From NCBI GenBank assembly GCA_031430955.1, contig JANPCM010000085.1: 33,409 nt of DNA. The stretch is one strand, 5' to 3'. Source of the stretch: Ferruginibacter sp. Its GTDB lineage: Bacteria; Bacteroidota; Bacteroidia; Chitinophagales; Chitinophagaceae. Under the pieces are notes generated by a model. It was not told the origin of the DNA. It did no database searches and worked only from the letters and a program-made list of their open reading frames with translations. Shown in pieces: positions 7,719 to 33,409 of the stretch; the first letter of the stretch is position 1; every line of letters begins with the position of its first letter. A program made the position numbers and the translations under genes.

Positions 7719-9638
7719 TTAATCTGGTTTTTTGCCTTCTAAAAAACTGTTGATGGTGCTGATCTCCGCCTGGTTATTATCGTCGGATTTTACAGTGTAG
7801 TTGCTGTAAAAATTTTCTACTTCTGCAATAGAATTATGTAATTCCATATTGCGGCGAAGGTAAGCTGGAACCATTTCAAACTCATTATTCGGATCGGCTG
7901 CATTGATGTTGAATGACAAATTACGCAGCTTCGCAATGCGTTCTATAGCCCGGCGCCTAAGTTCCTCTGTTTCGTCCTGCGGTGCAAGATCCTCAACATT
8001 GGACATCATGATGGGCTGAGTTTGTTGTACAAGTTGCTCTTCCTCCGCCGCTTGATGGGATTTAACTACCATCTGCATGTCTTCAATCCCGGTTTCGTCG
8101 GCCTTGATTGTTATCTGCAACGGCAGTAGCTCCTCTTTAGAATTGGATTTTGCTTCTGGCTGTTCCTCCACATAAATTTGTGCAGGCTTCGCCAATTTAA
8201 CCCCCGACGAAGGAGCATTGCTAGCATTTTTATTTGTTGAAATAATTGTTTGAACGCTGGTTTTAATAACGGGTTTTTCGCTGGGTACCGGAGTTGTGGG
8301 TATATCAAACGCTATTACAGGTGTTTGATCTTTCGCCGAAGATATTTCAAAAAACACAGGCGCTTCTTCAATTTTTTCCCCAAGCTTTTCCCCAGTAATT
8401 TTACCTGGTGGTTCTACTTTTATTTTTTCACTTTTAGTTTCTACCAGCTTAGGCATCATTTCATCTTCAACAAATTGCACAGCGGGTGTTTCACTTATTT
8501 CTGCAATGGCTTTATCCTCTTCTTCTTCAAATTGCAAAGTGGGTTGCTGTATTGGTTTTACAACTTTTAAAACAGGTATTTCTTTTACCGGCATCTCCAG
8601 TGTCATCACAATTTTATCGTCATCTTTCTTTACTTCTGTTGTTTCAACAGTTGCCTTTTTTTCAAACGGATCCTTATGTTCAAAACCTGTTGCTATTAAT
8701 GTAATACCAATCTGGCTGCCTAAACTATTATCGTAACCCAAACCTAAAATAACATCAGTATCTTCTCCTGCATTACTCAATAAATGATTTTGAATTACTT
8801 CCAATTCATCCATGGTAAACTCATGTTCGCCTTCAGCAGAATTAATATTTATCAAAATCCATTTTGCACCTTTAATGTCGTTATCGTTCAGCAATGGAGA
8901 GTTCAAAGCATTTTCAATAGCATCCTGTGCCCTGTTTTCGCCTTCGGCAGATGCGCTGCCTAAAATTGCTACACCACCATTACTCATTACTGTACATACA
9001 TCGGCAAAATCCACATTAATTTGACCGGTGCTGTTAATTACATCCGTAATACATTTTGCTGCAGTGGCTAAAACATTATCTGCTTTTGCAAAAGCTTCTT
9101 TCATTTTTAAATTACCAAACTGGTGGCGCAGTTTATCATTGCTTATCACCAGCAAAGTATCCACATGATTTTTCAACAGCATCACACCTTCTTCTGCCTG
9201 TGCAATTCTTTTCTTTCCTTCATAAGCAAACGGAGTGGTAACAATCCCCACCGTTAGTATACCTAAATCTTTACAAATTTTTGCTAAGATTGGTGCGCCA
9301 CCTGTACCGGTACCACCACCCATGCCGGCAGTAATAAATGCCATCTTGGTATTTACTTCCAGTATCCGTTTTATTTCTTCTAAACTTTCTTCGGTTGCCT
9401 GCCTGCCAATGGCAGGATTTGCACCAGCGCCTAAGCCTTGTGTTAAGTGCGGCCCCAACTGAATTTTGTTAGGCACTTTACTTAATGCAATTGCCTGTGC
9501 ATCTGTATTGCAAATAATAAAATTTACACCTTCAATGTTTTGCGAAAACATATGGTTAACTGCATTGCTGCCACCGCCGCCAACTCCAATCACTTTAATA
9601 ATGGAGGATTGTTCTTTTGGCAAATCAAAATGTATCAT
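7719..9638 (-). CDS. ftsZ: Cell division protein FtsZ with a long C-terminal linker
   Basis: IKVIGVGGGGSNAV, tubulin signature GMGGGTGTG, INVDFADV; C-terminal VPAYLRR peptide. Confidence 0.99.
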   Translation of the reverse strand: MIHFDLPKEQSSIIKVIGVGGGGSNAVNHMFSQNIEGVNFIICNTDAQAIALSKVPNKIQLGPHLTQGLGAGANPAIGRQATEESLEEIKRILEVNTKMAFITAGMGGGTGTGGAPILAKICKDLGILTVGIVTTPFAYEGKKRIAQAEEGVMLLKNHVDTLLVISNDKLRHQFGNLKMKEAFAKADNVLATAAKCITDVINSTGQINVDFADVCTVMSNGGVAILGSASAEGENRAQDAIENALNSPLLNDNDIKGAKWILININSAEGEHEFTMDELEVIQNHLLSNAGEDTDVILGLGYDNSLGSQIGITLIATGFEHKDPFEKKATVETTEVKKDDDKIVMTLEMPVKEIPVLKVVKPIQQPTLQFEEEEDKAIAEISETPAVQFVEDEMMPKLVETKSEKIKVEPPGKITGEKLGEKIEEAPVFFEISSAKDQTPVIAFDIPTTPVPSEKPVIKTSVQTIISTNKNASNAPSSGVKLAKPAQIYVEEQPEAKSNSKEELLPLQITIKADETGIEDMQMVVKSHQAAEEEQLVQQTQPIMMSNVEDLAPQDETEELRRRAIERIAKLRNLSFNINAADPNNEFEMVPAYLRRNMELHNSIAEVENFYSNYTVKSDDNNQAEISTINSFLEGKKPD

Positions 9639-27942: not shown

Positions 27943-27946
27943 GGGG

Positions 27947-28103
27947 GTGAATGGGCAATGGTCAATAGGCAATTAGCAATGCACCAATATTTCATTATTC
28001 ACCATTGATCATTCACCATTCGCAATTGACCATTCACAATTGACCATTCACAATTGACCATTCACAATTGACCATTCACAATTGACCATTCACAATTGAC
28101 CAC
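27947..28103. repeat. Heptamer-based tandem array with an opposed complementary arm between convergent genes
   Basis: Five perfect CAATTGACCATTCA units plus a partial unit at 28023-28102; left arm GTGAATG GGCAATG GTCAATA GGCAATT AGCAATG at 27947-27981. Confidence 0.92.
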
Positions 28104-28928
28104 TTACCGCAGCCCTCCAATAACTTCTGCAAACAGTTCACTCAACTTTGCATCAGCTTTACCAGCTACTGCAATTATTTCTCCAATATCAACAGGTTGC
28201 AAATTATCTGGGTCGCATTCGTCAGTTATTACACTTATTGCAGCACAGGGCAAACCCACATGATTGGCAACAATTACTTCGGGCACAGTACTCATGCCCA
28301 CCATATCGGCACCCATATTTCTTAAATGCCTGTACTCTGCTCTGGTTTCTAAATTGGGCCCTGCAACAGCAACATAAATACCTTCTTTAACTGGTATAGA
28401 TAATTTTTTTGCAGCAGTTAAAATTTTATTGTTCAAATCTTTGTTGTACGGGCAACTCATATCTACAAAACGATTTCCAAAAGCGGCATCATTCAATCCA
28501 CGTAAAGGATTTTCGGGTTGCTCATTAATATGATCGGTCAATAAAACCAGATCGCCTTTTTTGTAAGCAGCATTCATACCCCCTGCTGCATTACTCAATA
28601 GTAAATATTGTACCCCTAATTCTTTCATTACTCTTACCGGAAAAGTTACCTGCTGCATACTGTACCCCTCGTAATAATGAAATCTGCCCTGCATGGCAAT
28701 TACCGGCACATTATTCAACAACCCATAAATTAAATTTCCTTTATGAAACTCTACCGTTGCTTCCGGAAAATCAGGTATTTCATTATAGGGTATTGTAATT
28801 TTTATATCAATTTTATGTATCAACGCACTCAGACCTGTGCCTAATACAATGCCTGCTAAAGGTTTTTCCATACCCTTACTATGTAAAAATGCCGCACATT
28901 CTTTTATCATTTTTAAAGAATACTCCAT
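28104..28928 (-). CDS. punA: Purine nucleoside phosphorylase (trimeric PNP type)
   Basis: GIVLGTGL, MQGRFHYYEGY, NAAGG, GPNLET.AE, VGMSTVPEV; has ITDEC where canonical PNPs have ITN. Confidence 0.93.
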   Translation of the reverse strand: MEYSLKMIKECAAFLHSKGMEKPLAGIVLGTGLSALIHKIDIKITIPYNEIPDFPEATVEFHKGNLIYGLLNNVPVIAMQGRFHYYEGYSMQQVTFPVRVMKELGVQYLLLSNAAGGMNAAYKKGDLVLLTDHINEQPENPLRGLNDAAFGNRFVDMSCPYNKDLNNKILTAAKKLSIPVKEGIYVAVAGPNLETRAEYRHLRNMGADMVGMSTVPEVIVANHVGLPCAAISVITDECDPDNLQPVDIGEIIAVAGKADAKLSELFAEVIGGLR

Positions 28929-28988
28929 AACTAAATCTTTATTGGGTGAATGTACGTAAATTGGTTTTAAACTGTTTTACATTTATAT

Positions 28989-30257
28989 ATGAAATTTCTT
29001 TCTGCAATATTTATTTTTTTATCAATAAACAGCTTTGCCCAAAACGGTTACAAAACCGGCGATGCTGTGGGTGATCTGCAGGCAAAAAAAATTCTCAATT
29101 ATACTACACCCTCTTCTTCTCTTAAAAATTTAAAAGGCAATATAACCATTATAGATTTTTTTGGTACCTGGTGTGTGCCTTGTATTAAGGTTTTACCTGA
29201 ACTTACCAGTTTTAAAAATAAATTTGCTGCAGATGTAAATATTTTTTTAGTATCAAACGAAGCAGAGGATAAATTAAATAAATTTATCAGCAGCCGAAAA
29301 CCTTTTGCCTTACCCCTTGTTGTGGATGAAGGCAATATTTTTACAAATGCTTTTCAGCCACCATCTTATCCTTACACGGTGGTGCTGGATAAAAATTTAA
29401 AAGTAATTTCAATTACCAATGCTGCAGACCTTACAGAAGCCATGCTGCAAAAGTTTATTGAGGATGGAAAAAATATGATGGTAACAAAAACTGTTGAAGT
29501 TAAAAGTGAAACTAAAGCAGAAATAAAAACTGATACCAAAATGCCTGCCTATACTGCAAGTAAAAATGTATTGATAAAACTTTCGCAGGATTTTATGTAT
29601 GCCGCCAAATTAAATGAGGACGTTACAGCATTTATCGATCAGCTTAAAAATTTATCATTTGATGAGTTGAAAAAAAATATTAGTGGCGATGAAGAAAAAA
29701 AAGCCTTTTGGATAAATCTTTACAATGGTTATGTAAATTCATCGCTGCATAAAAATCCTGATCTTTATAAAGACAGGGGCGAATTTTTTTCTGCAAAAAA
29801 TATTATTGTTGCCGGTAAAACATTCAGCCTTGATGTAATAGAACATGGTATTTTAAGGAAAAGTAAAATAAAATGGAGCCTGGGCTATTTTAATAAATTA
29901 TTTCCTAATAAAACAGAAAAGGCTTTACGGGTACGCCATTTAGATAAGCGCATACATTTTGCCTTAAACTGCGGCGCTAAAAGTTGCCCGCCTATTGCAT
30001 TTTATAACGCTGAAAATATTAACCAACAATTAGACATAGCTACAAAAGCATATTTAACCGGCGAGGCAACTTATAATGCAGCAGAAAATAAATTATATCT
30101 TCCTGCAATTATGGGATGGTTTAGAAGGGATTTTAGCGGAAAGAAAAAAATGATCAGTATGGTTAAGTCATTAAATATTGTTCCTGAAAAAGTTTCGCCA
30201 TCAATTGAATTTAAACCTTACGACTGGACACTATATTTAGAAAATTATAAACTGTAA
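28989..30257 (+). CDS. Exported TlpA/thioredoxin-like domain + DUF547 fusion protein
   Basis: Signal peptide ending SFA-Q; DFFGTWCVPC and SYPYT; DUF547 motifs AFWINLYN, SLDVIEHGILR, RIHFALNCGAKSCPP. Confidence 0.85.
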   Translation: MKFLSAIFIFLSINSFAQNGYKTGDAVGDLQAKKILNYTTPSSSLKNLKGNITIIDFFGTWCVPCIKVLPELTSFKNKFAADVNIFLVSNEAEDKLNKFISSRKPFALPLVVDEGNIFTNAFQPPSYPYTVVLDKNLKVISITNAADLTEAMLQKFIEDGKNMMVTKTVEVKSETKAEIKTDTKMPAYTASKNVLIKLSQDFMYAAKLNEDVTAFIDQLKNLSFDELKKNISGDEEKKAFWINLYNGYVNSSLHKNPDLYKDRGEFFSAKNIIVAGKTFSLDVIEHGILRKSKIKWSLGYFNKLFPNKTEKALRVRHLDKRIHFALNCGAKSCPPIAFYNAENINQQLDIATKAYLTGEATYNAAENKLYLPAIMGWFRRDFSGKKKMISMVKSLNIVPEKVSPSIEFKPYDWTLYLENYKL

Positions 30258-30260
30258 ATT

Positions 30261-30596
30261 ATGAGCGACCATTATTACAATGCAGCTGACCTTGCAAAAT
30301 TTGGTAACATCGGCGAATACCAAAAAGATTTGGCAGATAAATTTTTTGCCTGGTACGGTGCAGCCTTTGCCGATAGTGCATTAACTGCAAAAGAAAAATC
30401 GCTGATCGCCTTAGCCGTTGCACATGCCGTACAATGCCCTTACTGCATTGATGCTTACAGCAGTGATGCCTACGAAAAAGGTTACAGCGAAGCACAGATG
30501 ATGGAAGCTGTACACATTGCCGCAGCCATAAAAGGTGGCGCTGCATTGGTGCATGGCGTGCAAATGATGAATAAAGTAAAGGAGATTGCGATGTAG
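30261..30596 (+). CDS. AhpD/CMD-family peroxidase-like protein of the type associated with arsS
   Basis: LTAKEKSLIALAVAHAVQCPYCIDAY (CxxC), GAALVHGVQM; directly upstream of arsS. Confidence 0.9.
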   Translation: MSDHYYNAADLAKFGNIGEYQKDLADKFFAWYGAAFADSALTAKEKSLIALAVAHAVQCPYCIDAYSSDAYEKGYSEAQMMEAVHIAAAIKGGAALVHGVQMMNKVKEIAM

Positions 30597-30854
30597 CCCC
30601 TGTCTCCGCCAGCTGGCGGAGAACTAAGATTGCTACTGTATAATTTTTTTAGTAACAGCTATTAATTTTATTGGTACAAGACTTTTGAGCCGGTCTTTTG
30701 AATTACTATTTAACTTCATTGGTCTGGCCTAAGGCGAGACACTCTTGTACAGCAAATCCTTATTGAACTTTTATCTCAGCGATTGATAAACGGAATAAAA
30801 AATAAATTATAAACTTTAAAATTATGTTCTCCGCCAGCTGGCGGAGTCAGGGGC
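30596..30854. mobile_element. 259-bp element bounded by 29-bp inverted repeats (REPIN/MITE-like)
   Basis: GCCCCTGTCTCCGCCAGCTGGCGGAGAAC (30596-30624) vs reverse complement of 30826-30854, 28/29 identical; contains a family 2 repeat at 30744-30781. Confidence 0.7.
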
Positions 30855-30857
30855 AAA

Positions 30858-31919
30858 ATGAAATCATTAAAAGCACAACATAACATTCTTGCAGATGCAC
30901 ATGAGCAAATAGAAATATTAGAGCATGGCGTAAATCATGATGATGCATTCAGGCTAATTCCATTTCAACAAAAATTGGAAGCCATTGGATTGTATCCTTT
31001 GCTGCCAACAGCATTAGAAGTTTTTCAAATTAACGTAGGCAAAATGTGTAACCAGGTTTGCAAACATTGTCATGTAGATGCCGGGCCCGACCGTAAAGAA
31101 ATAATGACCAGGGAAACAATGCTGCAATGTGTTGAAGTAATAAAAAATAATCCTTCATTTACCACAGTTGATCTAACAGGGGGTGCACCCGAAATGAATC
31201 CTGATTTTAGGTTTTTTGTAACCGAAATAAAAAAAGCTAATCCTCAAATAAAAATAATTGTACGGTGCAATCTTACCATCATCCGTGCCAATAAAAAATA
31301 TTACGATCTGCCCGAATTTTTTAAATTGCATAATATTGAAGTAGTTTCTTCTCTACCTTTTTATACTGCCGACAGAACAGATAAGCAAAGGGGCGATGGA
31401 GTTTTTGAAGACAGTATTACAGCCTTACAAATGCTTAATGCAGTTGGGTATGGTATGGAAGGCAGCGGCCTTATCTTAAATTTGGTATATAATCCGGCAG
31501 GCGCTTTTTTACCACCATCGCAAACGGCGTTAGAAAAAGAATTTAAAACCGCATTAAAAAAAGATTTTAATATTTCTTTCAATGCGCTTTTTGCCATTAC
31601 TAATTTACCCATCAGCCGTTATTTAGATTATTTGTTGCAAAGCGGCAATTACGAAAAGTATATGGAAAAATTGATTGCTGCATTTAACCCCGTGGCAGCA
31701 AGTAATGTAATGTGCCGCAATACACTTTCTATTGGTTGGGATGGATTTATTTACGATTGCGATTTTAACCAGATGCTGGAATTAAAAGTGGATTGCAGCA
31801 GTAAACATATTGCACAATACAACAGTACTGCATTACAAAACCGTTCTATCGTAGTTAACCAGCATTGCTTTGGTTGCACGGCGGGTGCAGGCAGCAGTTG
31901 CGGAGGTGCAGTAACCTAA
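30858..31919 (+). CDS. arsS: Radical SAM / Cys-rich protein of the arsenosugar biosynthesis ArsS family
   Basis: QINVGKMCNQVCKHCHVDAGP (CxxxCxxC), DLTGGAPEMNP, MCR, YDCDFNQML, C-terminal HCFGCTAGAGSSCGG. Confidence 0.92.
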   Translation: MKSLKAQHNILADAHEQIEILEHGVNHDDAFRLIPFQQKLEAIGLYPLLPTALEVFQINVGKMCNQVCKHCHVDAGPDRKEIMTRETMLQCVEVIKNNPSFTTVDLTGGAPEMNPDFRFFVTEIKKANPQIKIIVRCNLTIIRANKKYYDLPEFFKLHNIEVVSSLPFYTADRTDKQRGDGVFEDSITALQMLNAVGYGMEGSGLILNLVYNPAGAFLPPSQTALEKEFKTALKKDFNISFNALFAITNLPISRYLDYLLQSGNYEKYMEKLIAAFNPVAASNVMCRNTLSIGWDGFIYDCDFNQMLELKVDCSSKHIAQYNSTALQNRSIVVNQHCFGCTAGAGSSCGGAVT

Positions 31920-31923
31920 TAAA

Positions 31924-32517
31924 ATGAAATCAGGTCTAATAATATTCGTTCGCAATCCAGTTTTATCAAAGGTAAAAACAAGATTGGCAGCAACTATTGG
32001 TGAGGAAAAAGCATTGCAGGTGTGTAAACATTTATTACAGCATACCCATACAAGTACTAAAGATATATCAGTTACTAAATTTGTTTACTATGCCGACTAC
32101 ATAAATGAAGATGATATTTGGAATGGTTTTGAAAAAAAATTGCAGCAGGGTAATAATTTAGGCCAAAGAATGCAAATAGCTTTTCAGGAATTGTTTGAGG
32201 CTGACTTTACAAAAGTTTGCATAATAGGAAGTGATTGTTATGAGCTAAACAGCAATATTATAGAAAGGGCATTCGAAAAACTTAATACTGCTGATATTGT
32301 TATTGGCCCAGTAACAGATGGTGGTTATTATCTGTTGGGTCTGAATAAATTGATACCGGAACTTTTTATTAATAAATCATGGAGTACTGAAACCGTTTTT
32401 GCTGATACAATTAAAGATGCCACATCCCTCCAAATCAACTTTCATCAATTACCTGTACTAAATGATATTGATACTGAAAAAGACCTCCGCAACTCCACAC
32501 TTGCCTTTTTTATTTGA
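31924..32517 (+). CDS. TIGR04282/DUF2064 family CofC-like (GT-A fold) transferase associated with ArsS
   Basis: LIIFVRNP...KVKTRLA, QQGNNLGQRM, IIGSDC, IGPVTDGGYYLLG, LNDIDT..DL. Confidence 0.9.
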   Translation: MKSGLIIFVRNPVLSKVKTRLAATIGEEKALQVCKHLLQHTHTSTKDISVTKFVYYADYINEDDIWNGFEKKLQQGNNLGQRMQIAFQELFEADFTKVCIIGSDCYELNSNIIERAFEKLNTADIVIGPVTDGGYYLLGLNKLIPELFINKSWSTETVFADTIKDATSLQINFHQLPVLNDIDTEKDLRNSTLAFFI

Positions 32518-32552: not shown

Positions 32553-33409
32553 TTGCTTTATTCATTTGTAAAAATTATTGCAAGGCTGGCCTTACCCATT
32601 TATTGCAGAAATATAGCGATTAATAAAAAAGAACTCTTAAAACACAAAGGGCCATTACTTCTTGCAGTTAATCATCCAAACTCGTTTTTAGATGCTATAA
32701 TATTATGTACTTTATTTGATGGTACAGTATACTCCCTTGCCAGAGGCGATGCCTTTAAGAATAAATTTTTTGCTAAAATTTTATTCCTGTTTAAAATGTT
32801 TCCGGTGTACAGGGTTAGTGAAGGAGTAGAAAATATGGATGAGAATTACAAAACATTTGACCAGTGCAAAGAAATATTTAAGCAAAATGGTATTGTATTA
32901 ATTTTTAGCGAAGGAAGATGCATTAACGAATGGCATTTACGGCCCTTAATGAAAGGAACGGCAAGATTAGCCATCAGCAGTTGGGAAGAGGGCATTCCTT
33001 TACAAGTTTTGCCGGTTGGTATTAATTACAGTTCTTTTAGAAAAATGGGTAAAAATATACAATTGTTTTTTGGAGAGTTGATTACCAAAAATAATATTGA
33101 AAGCAGTAACGGGCATGGCAAAAGTATCCAATCGTTTAATACTAAACTTTTGCAACAATTACAACCCTTTGTTTTTGAAATAAATAAATCAAATAAAGAA
33201 GAACTGCACAAAAGATTTTATGTACCACAATCATTATTGAAAAAAATATTACTGTTTATTCCTTCCATAATTGGATGGCTGCTGCATGTTCCATTGTACT
33301 TTCCAGTTAAAATTTATGTACAAAACGCAGCTTTTGATAACGACCATTACGATTCTATTGTTGTGGCTTTATTATTTCTTATTTATCCCCTCTACCTTAT
33401 TATACTTTC
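32553..33409 (+). CDS. PlsC-like glycerolipid acyltransferase; partial, runs off the right edge
   Basis: Hand translation from TTG 32553: MLYSFVKIIARLALPIYCR...LLAVNHPNSFLDA (HxxxxD), ARGDAF, FPVYR, IFSEG, KGTARLA, LPVGINY. Confidence 0.9.
   Translation, partial: MLYSFVKIIARLALPIYCRNIAINKKELLKHKGPLLLAVNHPNSFLDAIILCTLFDGTVYSLARGDAFKNKFFAKILFLFKMFPVYRVSEGVENMDENYKTFDQCKEIFKQNGIVLIFSEGRCINEWHLRPLMKGTARLAISSWEEGIPLQVLPVGINYSSFRKMGKNIQLFFGELITKNNIESSNGHGKSIQSFNTKLLQQLQPFVFEINKSNKEELHKRFYVPQSLLKKILLFIPSIIGWLLHVPLYFPVKIYVQNAAFDNDHYDSIVVALLFLIYPLYLIIL

Follow-up and report, generated by a model that had tools for sequence, protein, structure and literature searches.

Which enzyme removes the adenine from the product of the radical S-adenosylmethionine (SAM) enzyme ArsS, and what becomes of the sugar thereafter, are the questions raised by a gene cluster near the end of a 33,409-nucleotide contig of Ferruginibacter sp. 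(assembly GCA_031430955.1, contig JANPCM010000085.1; the whole stretch is called the window below). Algae contain arsenosugars as their main organoarsenicals, and many arsenolipids have them as head groups; to our knowledge only ArsM and ArsS have been assigned in the pathway leading to arsenosugars. No literature assignment of the adenine-removing enzyme or of later steps was found, which is weak evidence given a thin coverage of subscription journals. In the portions available of two reports, ArsS makes DDMAA (5′-deoxy-5′-dimethylarsinoyl-adenosine) from dimethylarsenite, DMA(III) (PMC13598754; bioRxiv 10.64898/2026.04.29.721666), and the latter states that the adenine "can then be removed". 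The purine nucleoside phosphorylase (PNP) encoded close to arsS in the window appears to be the best candidate for this step, and is rather likely the right one. The five genes concerned were confirmed as open reading frames, at the positions and on the strands read from the DNA in an earlier note; with their setting they are:

28104..28928, minus strand: PNP, trimeric-type purine nucleoside phosphorylase of the TDECxP clade (NF006054, TIGR01700)
28929..28988: divergent gap of exactly 60 bp between PNP and the plus-strand genes
28989..30257, plus strand: Trx-DUF547, with a signal-peptide-like N-terminus, a TlpA/thioredoxin-like domain (CVPC) and DUF547
30261..30596, plus strand: TIGR04169, AhpD/CMD-like CxxC protein (CPYC)
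30597..30857: intergenic insert, one copy of a 19-bp near-palindrome at either bound
30858..31919, plus strand: arsS, TIGR04167 radical SAM enzyme with CX3CX2C (C64, C68, C71) and a C-terminal CxGCxAGxGSSC
31924..32517, plus strand: TIGR04282/DUF2064, CofC-like nucleotidyltransferase fold
32553..33409, plus strand: plsC-like acyltransferase, flanking, truncated by the contig end

That the cluster is of the arsenosugar type, as supposed in that note, is borne out by three of its products, which exceed the cut-offs of NCBIfam models already named for arsenosugar biosynthesis: ArsS (TIGR04167, 436.6 bits against a cut-off of 300), the AhpD-like protein (TIGR04169, 171.8 against 120) and the TIGR04282 protein (205.6 against 134). 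The cluster is of a known, already catalogued kind. ArsS carries CX3CX2C at residues 64–71, the radical SAM and C-terminal cysteine motifs are invariant in six ArsS proteins from three phyla, and the window protein is 64.7% identical to a Hymenobacter protein and 45% identical to an arsM-linked cyanobacterial ArsS; its family membership predicts that it forms DDMAA. Set beside the ArsM/ArsS system of Synechocystis sp. PCC 6803 and the NCBIfam set (TIGR04167, TIGR04169, TIGR04282, TIGR04283 and NF038099), the window holds the first three families, and TIGR04283 and NF038099 lie elsewhere in the assembly (contigs C664 and C349); in contrast to Synechocystis, the host is not a cyanobacterium and the window's allele lacks arsM. 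The window further differs from the NCBIfam set in carrying a nucleoside phosphorylase, which no NCBIfam model ties to the pathway, and the single cyanobacterial arsM–arsS locus viewed held no phosphorylase. Here and below, G, C and L codes denote genomes, contigs and loci of the analysis sample, G000 being the window's own assembly, and f and g codes denote families and genera; f1 appears to be Chitinophagaceae-like, f5 Flavobacteriaceae-like and f23 to comprise green sulfur bacteria.

The association of the PNP with arsS was followed in a family sample of 201 genomes, in 16 of which (G000 and 15 others) arsS exceeded its cut-off. A search with the window PNP returned 22 full-length matches of at least 324 bits, followed by a lower bulk, and a tree of 49 proteins (these 22 and 27 hand-chosen lower matches, second copies from two-PNP genomes included) separated a TDECxP clade, holding the 22 full-length rows, from a housekeeping clade with support of 100/100. 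PNPs of the TDECxP clade occur in 16/16 arsS genomes as against 8/185 arsS-negative ones, kinship being ignored in these counts, and the phylogenetic profiling that the earlier note had proposed as a check thus came out in favour of the link. Fourteen of the 16 proteins are full length; the other two are split at contig ends beside cassette genes, that of G143 into two halves with the motif and that of G018 as an N-terminal half beside AhpD with the motif out of view. The clade PNP lies within about 8 kb of arsS at 8/15 other loci, in several orders, and at four of the remaining seven it stands beside TIGR04282, TIGR04283 or AhpD. Chance does not explain the grouping in the window, as the cassette genes are found together again, in several arrangements, at these 15 loci. 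TIGR04282 is itself present in 14/15 other arsS genomes, as against 0/8 arsS-negative genomes with the clade PNP and 1/19 further family genomes, and PNP and TIGR04282 lie within 100 bp of each other, measured between alignment ends, at 8 of the 13 fetched loci that have both.

The same pattern holds at other levels. Within-genus contrasts are concordant in g12, g29, g51 and g162; in g1, G056 agrees and G191 is an exception. Genus g162 has arsS in 1/15 genomes, and only that genome has a clade PNP, located inside the cassette, besides a PNP of the histidine type described below. In family f5 the clade PNP is present in 12/12 arsS genomes and 1/16 others, the single arsS-negative case still having it between TIGR04282 and DUF547/TIGR04283; the usual layout there is a tight TIGR04282–PNP pair followed by arsM. 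That the PNP is an additional cassette member, outside the NCBIfam arsenosugar set, is well supported. Two broader formulations were rejected. Adjacency of PNP and arsS is not universal: arsS occurs in 148/401 phylum genomes, and among 40 phylum loci hand-picked across families (15 from the window's class, 25 from other classes) six have a PNP no more than 7 kb from arsS; a canonical-type PNP was seen at the edge of one locus of this set, L141. The exact motif TDEC[DN]PD, found in only 8/401 genomes, was too strict as a phylum-wide profile because relatives vary (TDECFP, TDDC, TDLC), and it was replaced by alignment searches and trees.

Of the family models, the PNP passes only general PNP ones (NF006054, 345.3 bits against 218; TIGR01700, 311.9 against 293.35), and its fold matches 4M1E with Z 41.8 (root-mean-square deviation 1.3, 273 residues aligned). 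E194 is equivalent to Glu201, a Glu conserved in 118/118 aligned PNPs, and D236, within ITDEC at residues 234–238 and followed by E237 and C238, is equivalent to Asn243, the residue for 6-oxopurine specificity. The earlier note had read this ITD in place of ITN as the sign of a special substrate, which did not hold: the same Asp is present in 27/27 housekeeping PNPs examined in the family, in the second PNP of this assembly on C718 (ITDIG), in the solved Bacteroides fragilis PNP 8SWT and in 109/118 aligned PNPs. The Asp was accordingly rejected as a specificity marker, being lineage-wide and common to housekeeping enzymes. In the part of the source available, an Asp at 243 admits adenosine (PMC6274182).

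What does separate the two clades is position 248, which is Ile, Leu or Val in 22/22 clade members (Ile in the window) and His in 27/27 housekeeping PNPs. This column was set by alignment to the HEEV motif of 8SWT and 8SWU, both of which keep it, and the His of that motif we take to be human His257; in the window PNP the residue equivalent to His257, which binds the 5′-OH, is thus I248. DDMAA and 5′-methylthioadenosine (MTA), like 5′-deoxyadenosine, lack a 5′-OH. As far as the source could be seen, His257 hydrogen-bonds the 5′-OH, and in complexes of MTA phosphorylase (MTAP) the side chain is almost never hydrogen-bonded (PMC12648331). Two MTAPs from arsS cassettes have Ala and Val in the 248 column. 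On the alignment, the discriminating change of the clade is that of the His257 equivalent to Ile, and not the Asp. Compared with trimeric PNPs generally (human and bovine PNP, PunA; TIGR01700; 4LNA, 4M1E, 8SWT), the window enzyme shares the fold and the Glu201 equivalent and differs in the lineage-wide Asp for Asn243, in Ile for His257, in a Leu for the Phe preceding the Glu and in the invariant TDECxP loop; by their sequences, 4LNA and 4M1E also lack the His.

At class level (78 genomes), a PNP without this His was found in 27/27 arsS genomes; the 51 arsS-negative genomes comprised 18 with a His-less PNP, 19 with only the His type, 13 without a match and one ambiguous case. These counts would fit a requirement of arsS for a His-less PNP, one being brought along with arsS where the resident PNP keeps the His. 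In other classes, a His-less PNP with TDECFP was present in 15/15 genomes (14 of them arsS-positive). It lies directly upstream of mtnA in 5/5 f23 genomes (L317–L321: G218, G289, G317, G204, G240), and in 10/10 genomes from eight other families it coexists with a canonical Asn/His PNP. Because of this position upstream of mtnA, and because of the canonical paralogue elsewhere in the genome, the TDECFP type most likely works in the manner of MTAP on a PNP scaffold, even though it fails MTAP membership; the f23 proteins are probably MTA/5′-deoxyadenosine phosphorylases annotated as plain PNP. Within the window's own family, the linkage to mtnA was rejected as weak, mtnA being found in 7/201 genomes, three of them with the clade PNP, and the three family mtnA neighbourhoods viewed contained no PNP. 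As a side observation, L164 (G302) and L166 (G543), both arsS-negative, each hold a tandem pair of PNPs related to the clade; the motif is TND (Asn) in one and TDD (Asp) in the other, and the His is missing from both.

The window PNP resembles MTAP (MtnP, TIGR01694) in lacking a His at the 5′ position and in having an Asp at the base-binding position and a Cys-containing loop after TD. It differs from it in scoring 105.4 bits against the TIGR01694 cut-off of 274.85, in an identity of about 25%, in keeping the PNP Glu and in retaining only the first Asp of TDxD (TDEC), a pair described as D220 and D222 and as binding adenine in the accessible part of one report (PMC5738077). MTAP also fills the same slot in proteobacterial arsS cassettes. 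Among the best 80 of at least 597 loci ordered by their similarity to an Acinetobacter ArsS (non-Bacteroidota, mostly Proteobacteria with some picocyanobacteria; 26 loci under 15 kb), TIGR04283 was found in 51, TIGR04282 in 46 and MTAP in 11, the last in Psychrobacter, Microbulbifer, Hylemonella, Caldimonas, Noviherbaspirillum and others. MTAP lies within 250 bp of arsS in 7 of these 11 loci, and was present in 2/4 annotated plasmid cassettes viewed. MTA nucleosidase (MTAN), searched with a single query of limited reach, gave no match in 139 arsS loci. On this query, it is a phosphorylase, and not a hydrolase, that is recruited to arsS cassettes; since two unrelated phosphorylase subfamilies and no hydrolase are involved, the 1-phosphate product seems to matter. 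Taken together, the loss of the His, the mtnA linkage of relatives and the displacement by MTAP suggest phosphorolysis of 5′-substituted adenosines as the predicted activity of the window PNP. It is probably a broad 5′-substituted-adenosine phosphorylase, recruited where the organism's own PNP keeps the His, rather than an arsenic-only enzyme, and a widespread PNP subfamily annotated as inosine/guanosine-specific would then probably act on 5′-substituted adenosines. Two observations on plasmids may be added: in 48 Burkholderia records arsS lies on a plasmid, B. glumae predominating among those listed, and the locus viewed on a plasmid of Burkholderia thailandensis (L150) has MTAP, TIGR04283 and TIGR04282 together with a further radical SAM gene and a pair of ECF sigma and anti-sigma genes.

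The next gene in line is TIGR04282, which the earlier note had regarded as activating or transferring the sugar. The activating role finds support in the fold: the model (predicted local distance difference test score 95.8) matches the uncharacterized 3CGX best (Z 26.8), then the guanylyltransferase 7P97 (Z 19.7, root-mean-square deviation 2.5, 186 aligned) and the CofC/FbiD proteins 2I5E (Z 19.4) and 6BWG (Z 16.1), as against at most Z 14.2 for other nucleotidyltransferases and Z 13.2 for glycosyltransferases. These phosphomonoester guanylyltransferases are its closest characterized folds, from which it differs in an identity of only 16–17%. It passes the Pfam CofC model (32.1 against 22), and K18, R20, D104, D181 and D183 are invariant, as are a basic N-terminal motif and a C-terminal DxD among 20 homologues. 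CofC enzymes guanylylate small phosphomonoesters, and a sugar 1-phosphate would be a fitting substrate class for an enzyme of this modelled fold.

Of the two CxxC proteins (motifs at residues 62–65 of Trx-DUF547 and 59–62 of the AhpD-like protein), both had been proposed in the earlier note to manage the redox state of arsenic or thiols, and the proposal fits one of them. Since TIGR04169 lies near arsS in 32/40 phylum loci, where it is the most constant neighbour, and the window protein matches the ArsM/AhpD fusion model NF041537, if weakly (E 1.9e-6), a putative role of the AhpD-like protein in keeping methyl-arsenic trivalent is plausible. Trx-DUF547, in contrast, has a hydrophobic, signal-peptide-like stretch before its thioredoxin-like domain and DUF547; it is probably exported and, because of this N-terminus, probably cannot control the redox state of an ArsS reaction taking place in the cytoplasm. 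Of the family loci viewed, only this one and that of G055 showed the fusion, DUF547 being a separate gene of the cassette elsewhere.

The reaction order that we propose would begin with an ArsM encoded elsewhere in the assembly (the genes are seen as arsR–arsM on C516 and as arsenosugar-type arsM on C349), which would make dimethylarsenite. The AhpD-like CxxC protein might hold the methyl-arsenic trivalent, and ArsS, as published for the family, would add the 5′-deoxyadenosyl group to give DDMAA. PNP would then, with fair probability, use phosphate to cleave the N-glycosidic bond, giving adenine and 5-dimethylarsinoyl-ribose-1-phosphate. TIGR04282 might convert the latter to a nucleoside diphosphate (NDP)-arsinoyl-ribose, most likely with GTP, a step whose fold-based case leaves the chances about equal. 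TIGR04283, an inverting GT2 enzyme, would finally transfer the sugar to an acceptor as a β-riboside. PNPs give α-ribose-1-phosphate and GT2 enzymes invert, and natural arsenosugars are β-ribosides, so that an α-1-phosphate from PNP followed by an inverting GT2 would give the configuration of the natural compounds. The full chain of phosphorolysis, activation and transfer we consider a balanced proposition. There is a precedent for its first part in the fluorometabolite and salinosporamide pathways, in which a halogenase is followed by a dedicated PNP giving 5-halo-ribose-1-phosphate, which is then isomerized: a SAM-derived 5′-substituted adenosine is likewise cleaved by a cluster-encoded phosphorylase. 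The window differs from these in having no isomerase and a nucleotidyltransferase-like gene instead. The locus and its relatives name three small soluble candidates and a reaction order testable in vitro. More tentatively, the missing second half of the pathway could be made up of an MTAP built on a His-less PNP scaffold (in Proteobacteria, of MTAP proper), of TIGR04282 acting through an undescribed GDP-dimethylarsinoylribose, and of TIGR04283, and common marine and sediment heterotrophs could then be major unrecognized arsenosugar producers.

Several observations weigh against this interpretation. Loss of the His was rejected as an arsenic-specific signature because His-less PNPs are plain housekeeping genes in f6, and such housekeeping copies occur also in f2 and f12. 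The mtnA link of the relatives points as much to 5′-deoxyadenosine or MTA as to DDMAA, and a dimethylarsinoyl group takes up more room than methylthio and has a higher polarity. The genomes compared are related and hence not independent; all six phylum loci with PNP near arsS belong to the class of the window (6/15, as against 0/25 outside it), and 69/80 distant loci have no MTAP. Eight family genomes keep the clade PNP without arsS and without TIGR04282. Moreover, the clade PNP is the sole trimeric PNP found in G191, G148, G102, G158 and 11/12 f5 arsS genomes, and must for that reason also do ordinary work there. The TIGR04282 protein scores 40.5 bits against the TIGR03552 (CofC) cut-off of 105, and NCBIfam names the family a glycosyltransferase. 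Finally, neither TIGR04283 nor arsM is in the window, and the arsenosugar-type arsM may come from another allele or strain of the bin.

Among the alternatives, the one that survives best, though we regard it as unlikely, is that PNP has a clean-up function, removing 5′-deoxyadenosine from abortive ArsS turnover together with MTA, both of which would inhibit the radical SAM enzyme; the adenine of DDMAA would then be removed by another enzyme, or TIGR04282 and TIGR04283 would act on DDMAA directly. This would account for the five f23 genomes with the same PNP type upstream of mtnA, one of which is arsS-negative, for the proteobacterial MTAP often lying nearer to arsS than to TIGR04282, for the lack of MTAN in 36/37 clade-PNP genomes (it was found in 1/37), and for a mild enrichment of mtnA with the clade in the family sample (3/24 clade genomes against 4/177 others). 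However, 177/185 arsS-negative family genomes manage without a clade PNP, and mtnA, found in 3/37 clade-PNP genomes, is missing in the other 34, where the sugar phosphate released would have no known salvage route. A hydrolase such as MTAN would also serve equally well, yet the single MTAN query had no match in the 139 loci. The pairing of PNP with TIGR04282 also persists in genomes whose arsS is at another place or was not found (G147, G114, G462, G477, G481, G539, G294).

It is distinctly improbable that PNP cleaves DDMAA merely for detoxification and recovery of adenine, the arsinoyl-ribose being exported or degraded with no NDP-sugar route to glycerol arsenosugars or arsenolipids. Cassettes do often include a phosphate-transporter family protein, an aquaporin-like protein, a TonB-dependent receptor or an FAD oxidoreductase, and no paper was found showing arsenosugars in this phylum. 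The near-constant TIGR04282 of the family arsS genomes and the frequency of TIGR04282 and TIGR04283 near arsS in the distant loci argue otherwise, since a nucleotidyltransferase-like protein paired with a GT2 enzyme implies that a glycoside is built.

Marginally less probable again is a cassette making a riboside whose 5′ substituent is not arsenic but selenium, sulfur or another nucleophile, in which case the names referring to arsenosugars would stem from the cyanobacterial enzyme. The abundance of arsS in the phylum would agree with this, as would the limited distribution of arsenosugar-type arsM (7/16 arsS genomes), two arsS genomes with neither ArsM type (G190, G055) and the listing of TIGR04167 as a selenoprotein family in the part available of one source (PMC13188914). 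Nevertheless, canonical ArsM exceeds its cut-off in seven of the nine arsS genomes lacking the arsenosugar type, so that 14/16 have some ArsM; arsR, arsM and arsC-like genes stand on C516 of this very assembly, and the window ArsS shares 45% of its residues with an ArsS that is arsM-linked. Lastly, that PNP is an ordinary inosine/guanosine salvage enzyme adjoining the cassette by chance, as its passing TIGR01700 and the cassette-free PNP between yqgE and plsC in G191 of the same genus might suggest, is scarcely credible in view of the separate housekeeping PNP on C718 and of a co-occurrence with arsS maintained over at least five gene orders.

The remainder of the assembly (93.7% complete, 2.3% contaminated) supplies most of what the window lacks. 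The second trimeric PNP, on C718, is of the housekeeping type; no MTAP or MTAN exceeded its cut-off in G000, and no mtnA-like gene was found in this 93.7% complete assembly. TIGR04283 is located on C664 after atpC (203.5 bits against 182). Synteny with G191 and G102 would link C664 to one or the other allele; no direct overlap was found between the window's end and C664 or any contig. In G191 (L103, G191:C31), of the same genus, atpC, plsC, PNP and yqgE follow in the same order, with no cassette and no TIGR04283. Contig C516 has a canonical arsR–arsM–GNAT–arsC-like run, of which only arsM was tested by hidden Markov model; short motifs of Acr3 and ArsC gave no match, an ArsC-like gene being seen on C516 all the same.

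No arsM lies in the window; NF038099 (arsenosugar-type arsM) is passed on C349 and canonical ArsM on C516. Three contigs, C315, C349 and C465, carry another arsS end (94% identical in DNA), a divergent second DUF2064 gene, a TonB-dependent receptor, arsenosugar-type arsM, a small membrane protein, a flavodoxin-like gene and one further copy each of TIGR04282 and plsC; between C349 and C465 there is an overlap of 358 bp (96.4%). The three contigs probably represent a longer second allele of this locus, contributed by another strain in the bin. By contig depth, a rough measure, C349 was covered in 30/30 bins in four runs at about the depth of the PNP–arsS part, and the TIGR04282–plsC part of the window was shallower in the same runs. 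The window's allele is one without arsM, because contigs from two public runs span its short arsS–TIGR04282 junction. The layout of G018 is similar to that of the second allele.

Some cassette companions recur at other loci. A conserved 356-residue Cys-rich flavodoxin-like protein accompanies a sterol-desaturase-like gene in arsS cassettes (L045:5698-6771, L052, L304, L308:549-1616); it has no NCBIfam match at 1e-8 and a weak one to FMN_red. A rhodanese-homology gene (NF045521) often stands between arsS and TIGR04282 (L113, L115, L116, L305 and others), a hint of thio-arsenical chemistry. At G161:C3:17005-17965, arsenosugar-type arsM is split over two overlapping frames, by frameshift or assembly error. 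The plsC gene also follows TIGR04282 in G079, G102 and C465; since it flanks PNP in the cassette-free G191 as well, it was left out of the cassette.

The insert at 30597–30857 is, as far as shown, not a functional part of the cassette: its 19-bp near-palindrome has 20 copies in the assembly, parts of it (the middle matching many) occur on 68 contigs, and its two sides, 30595 and 30858, are joined across it in contigs of two runs. Runs containing at least half of the sampled words of the stretch are, by their records, mostly sediment metagenomes (six runs, two studies), and no RNA run was among the listed runs containing it. The rest of the window consists mainly of a cell-division cluster and two-component genes. 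Its FtsZ (7719–9638) is 639 residues long, with a C-terminal extension of about 300 residues without a Pfam match. Between the convergent yqgE and PNP, at 27997–28102, a 14-bp unit is repeated in tandem (6.6 copies, 97% matches); a partial inverted copy lies at 27946–27981, and the unit is present on 14 contigs.

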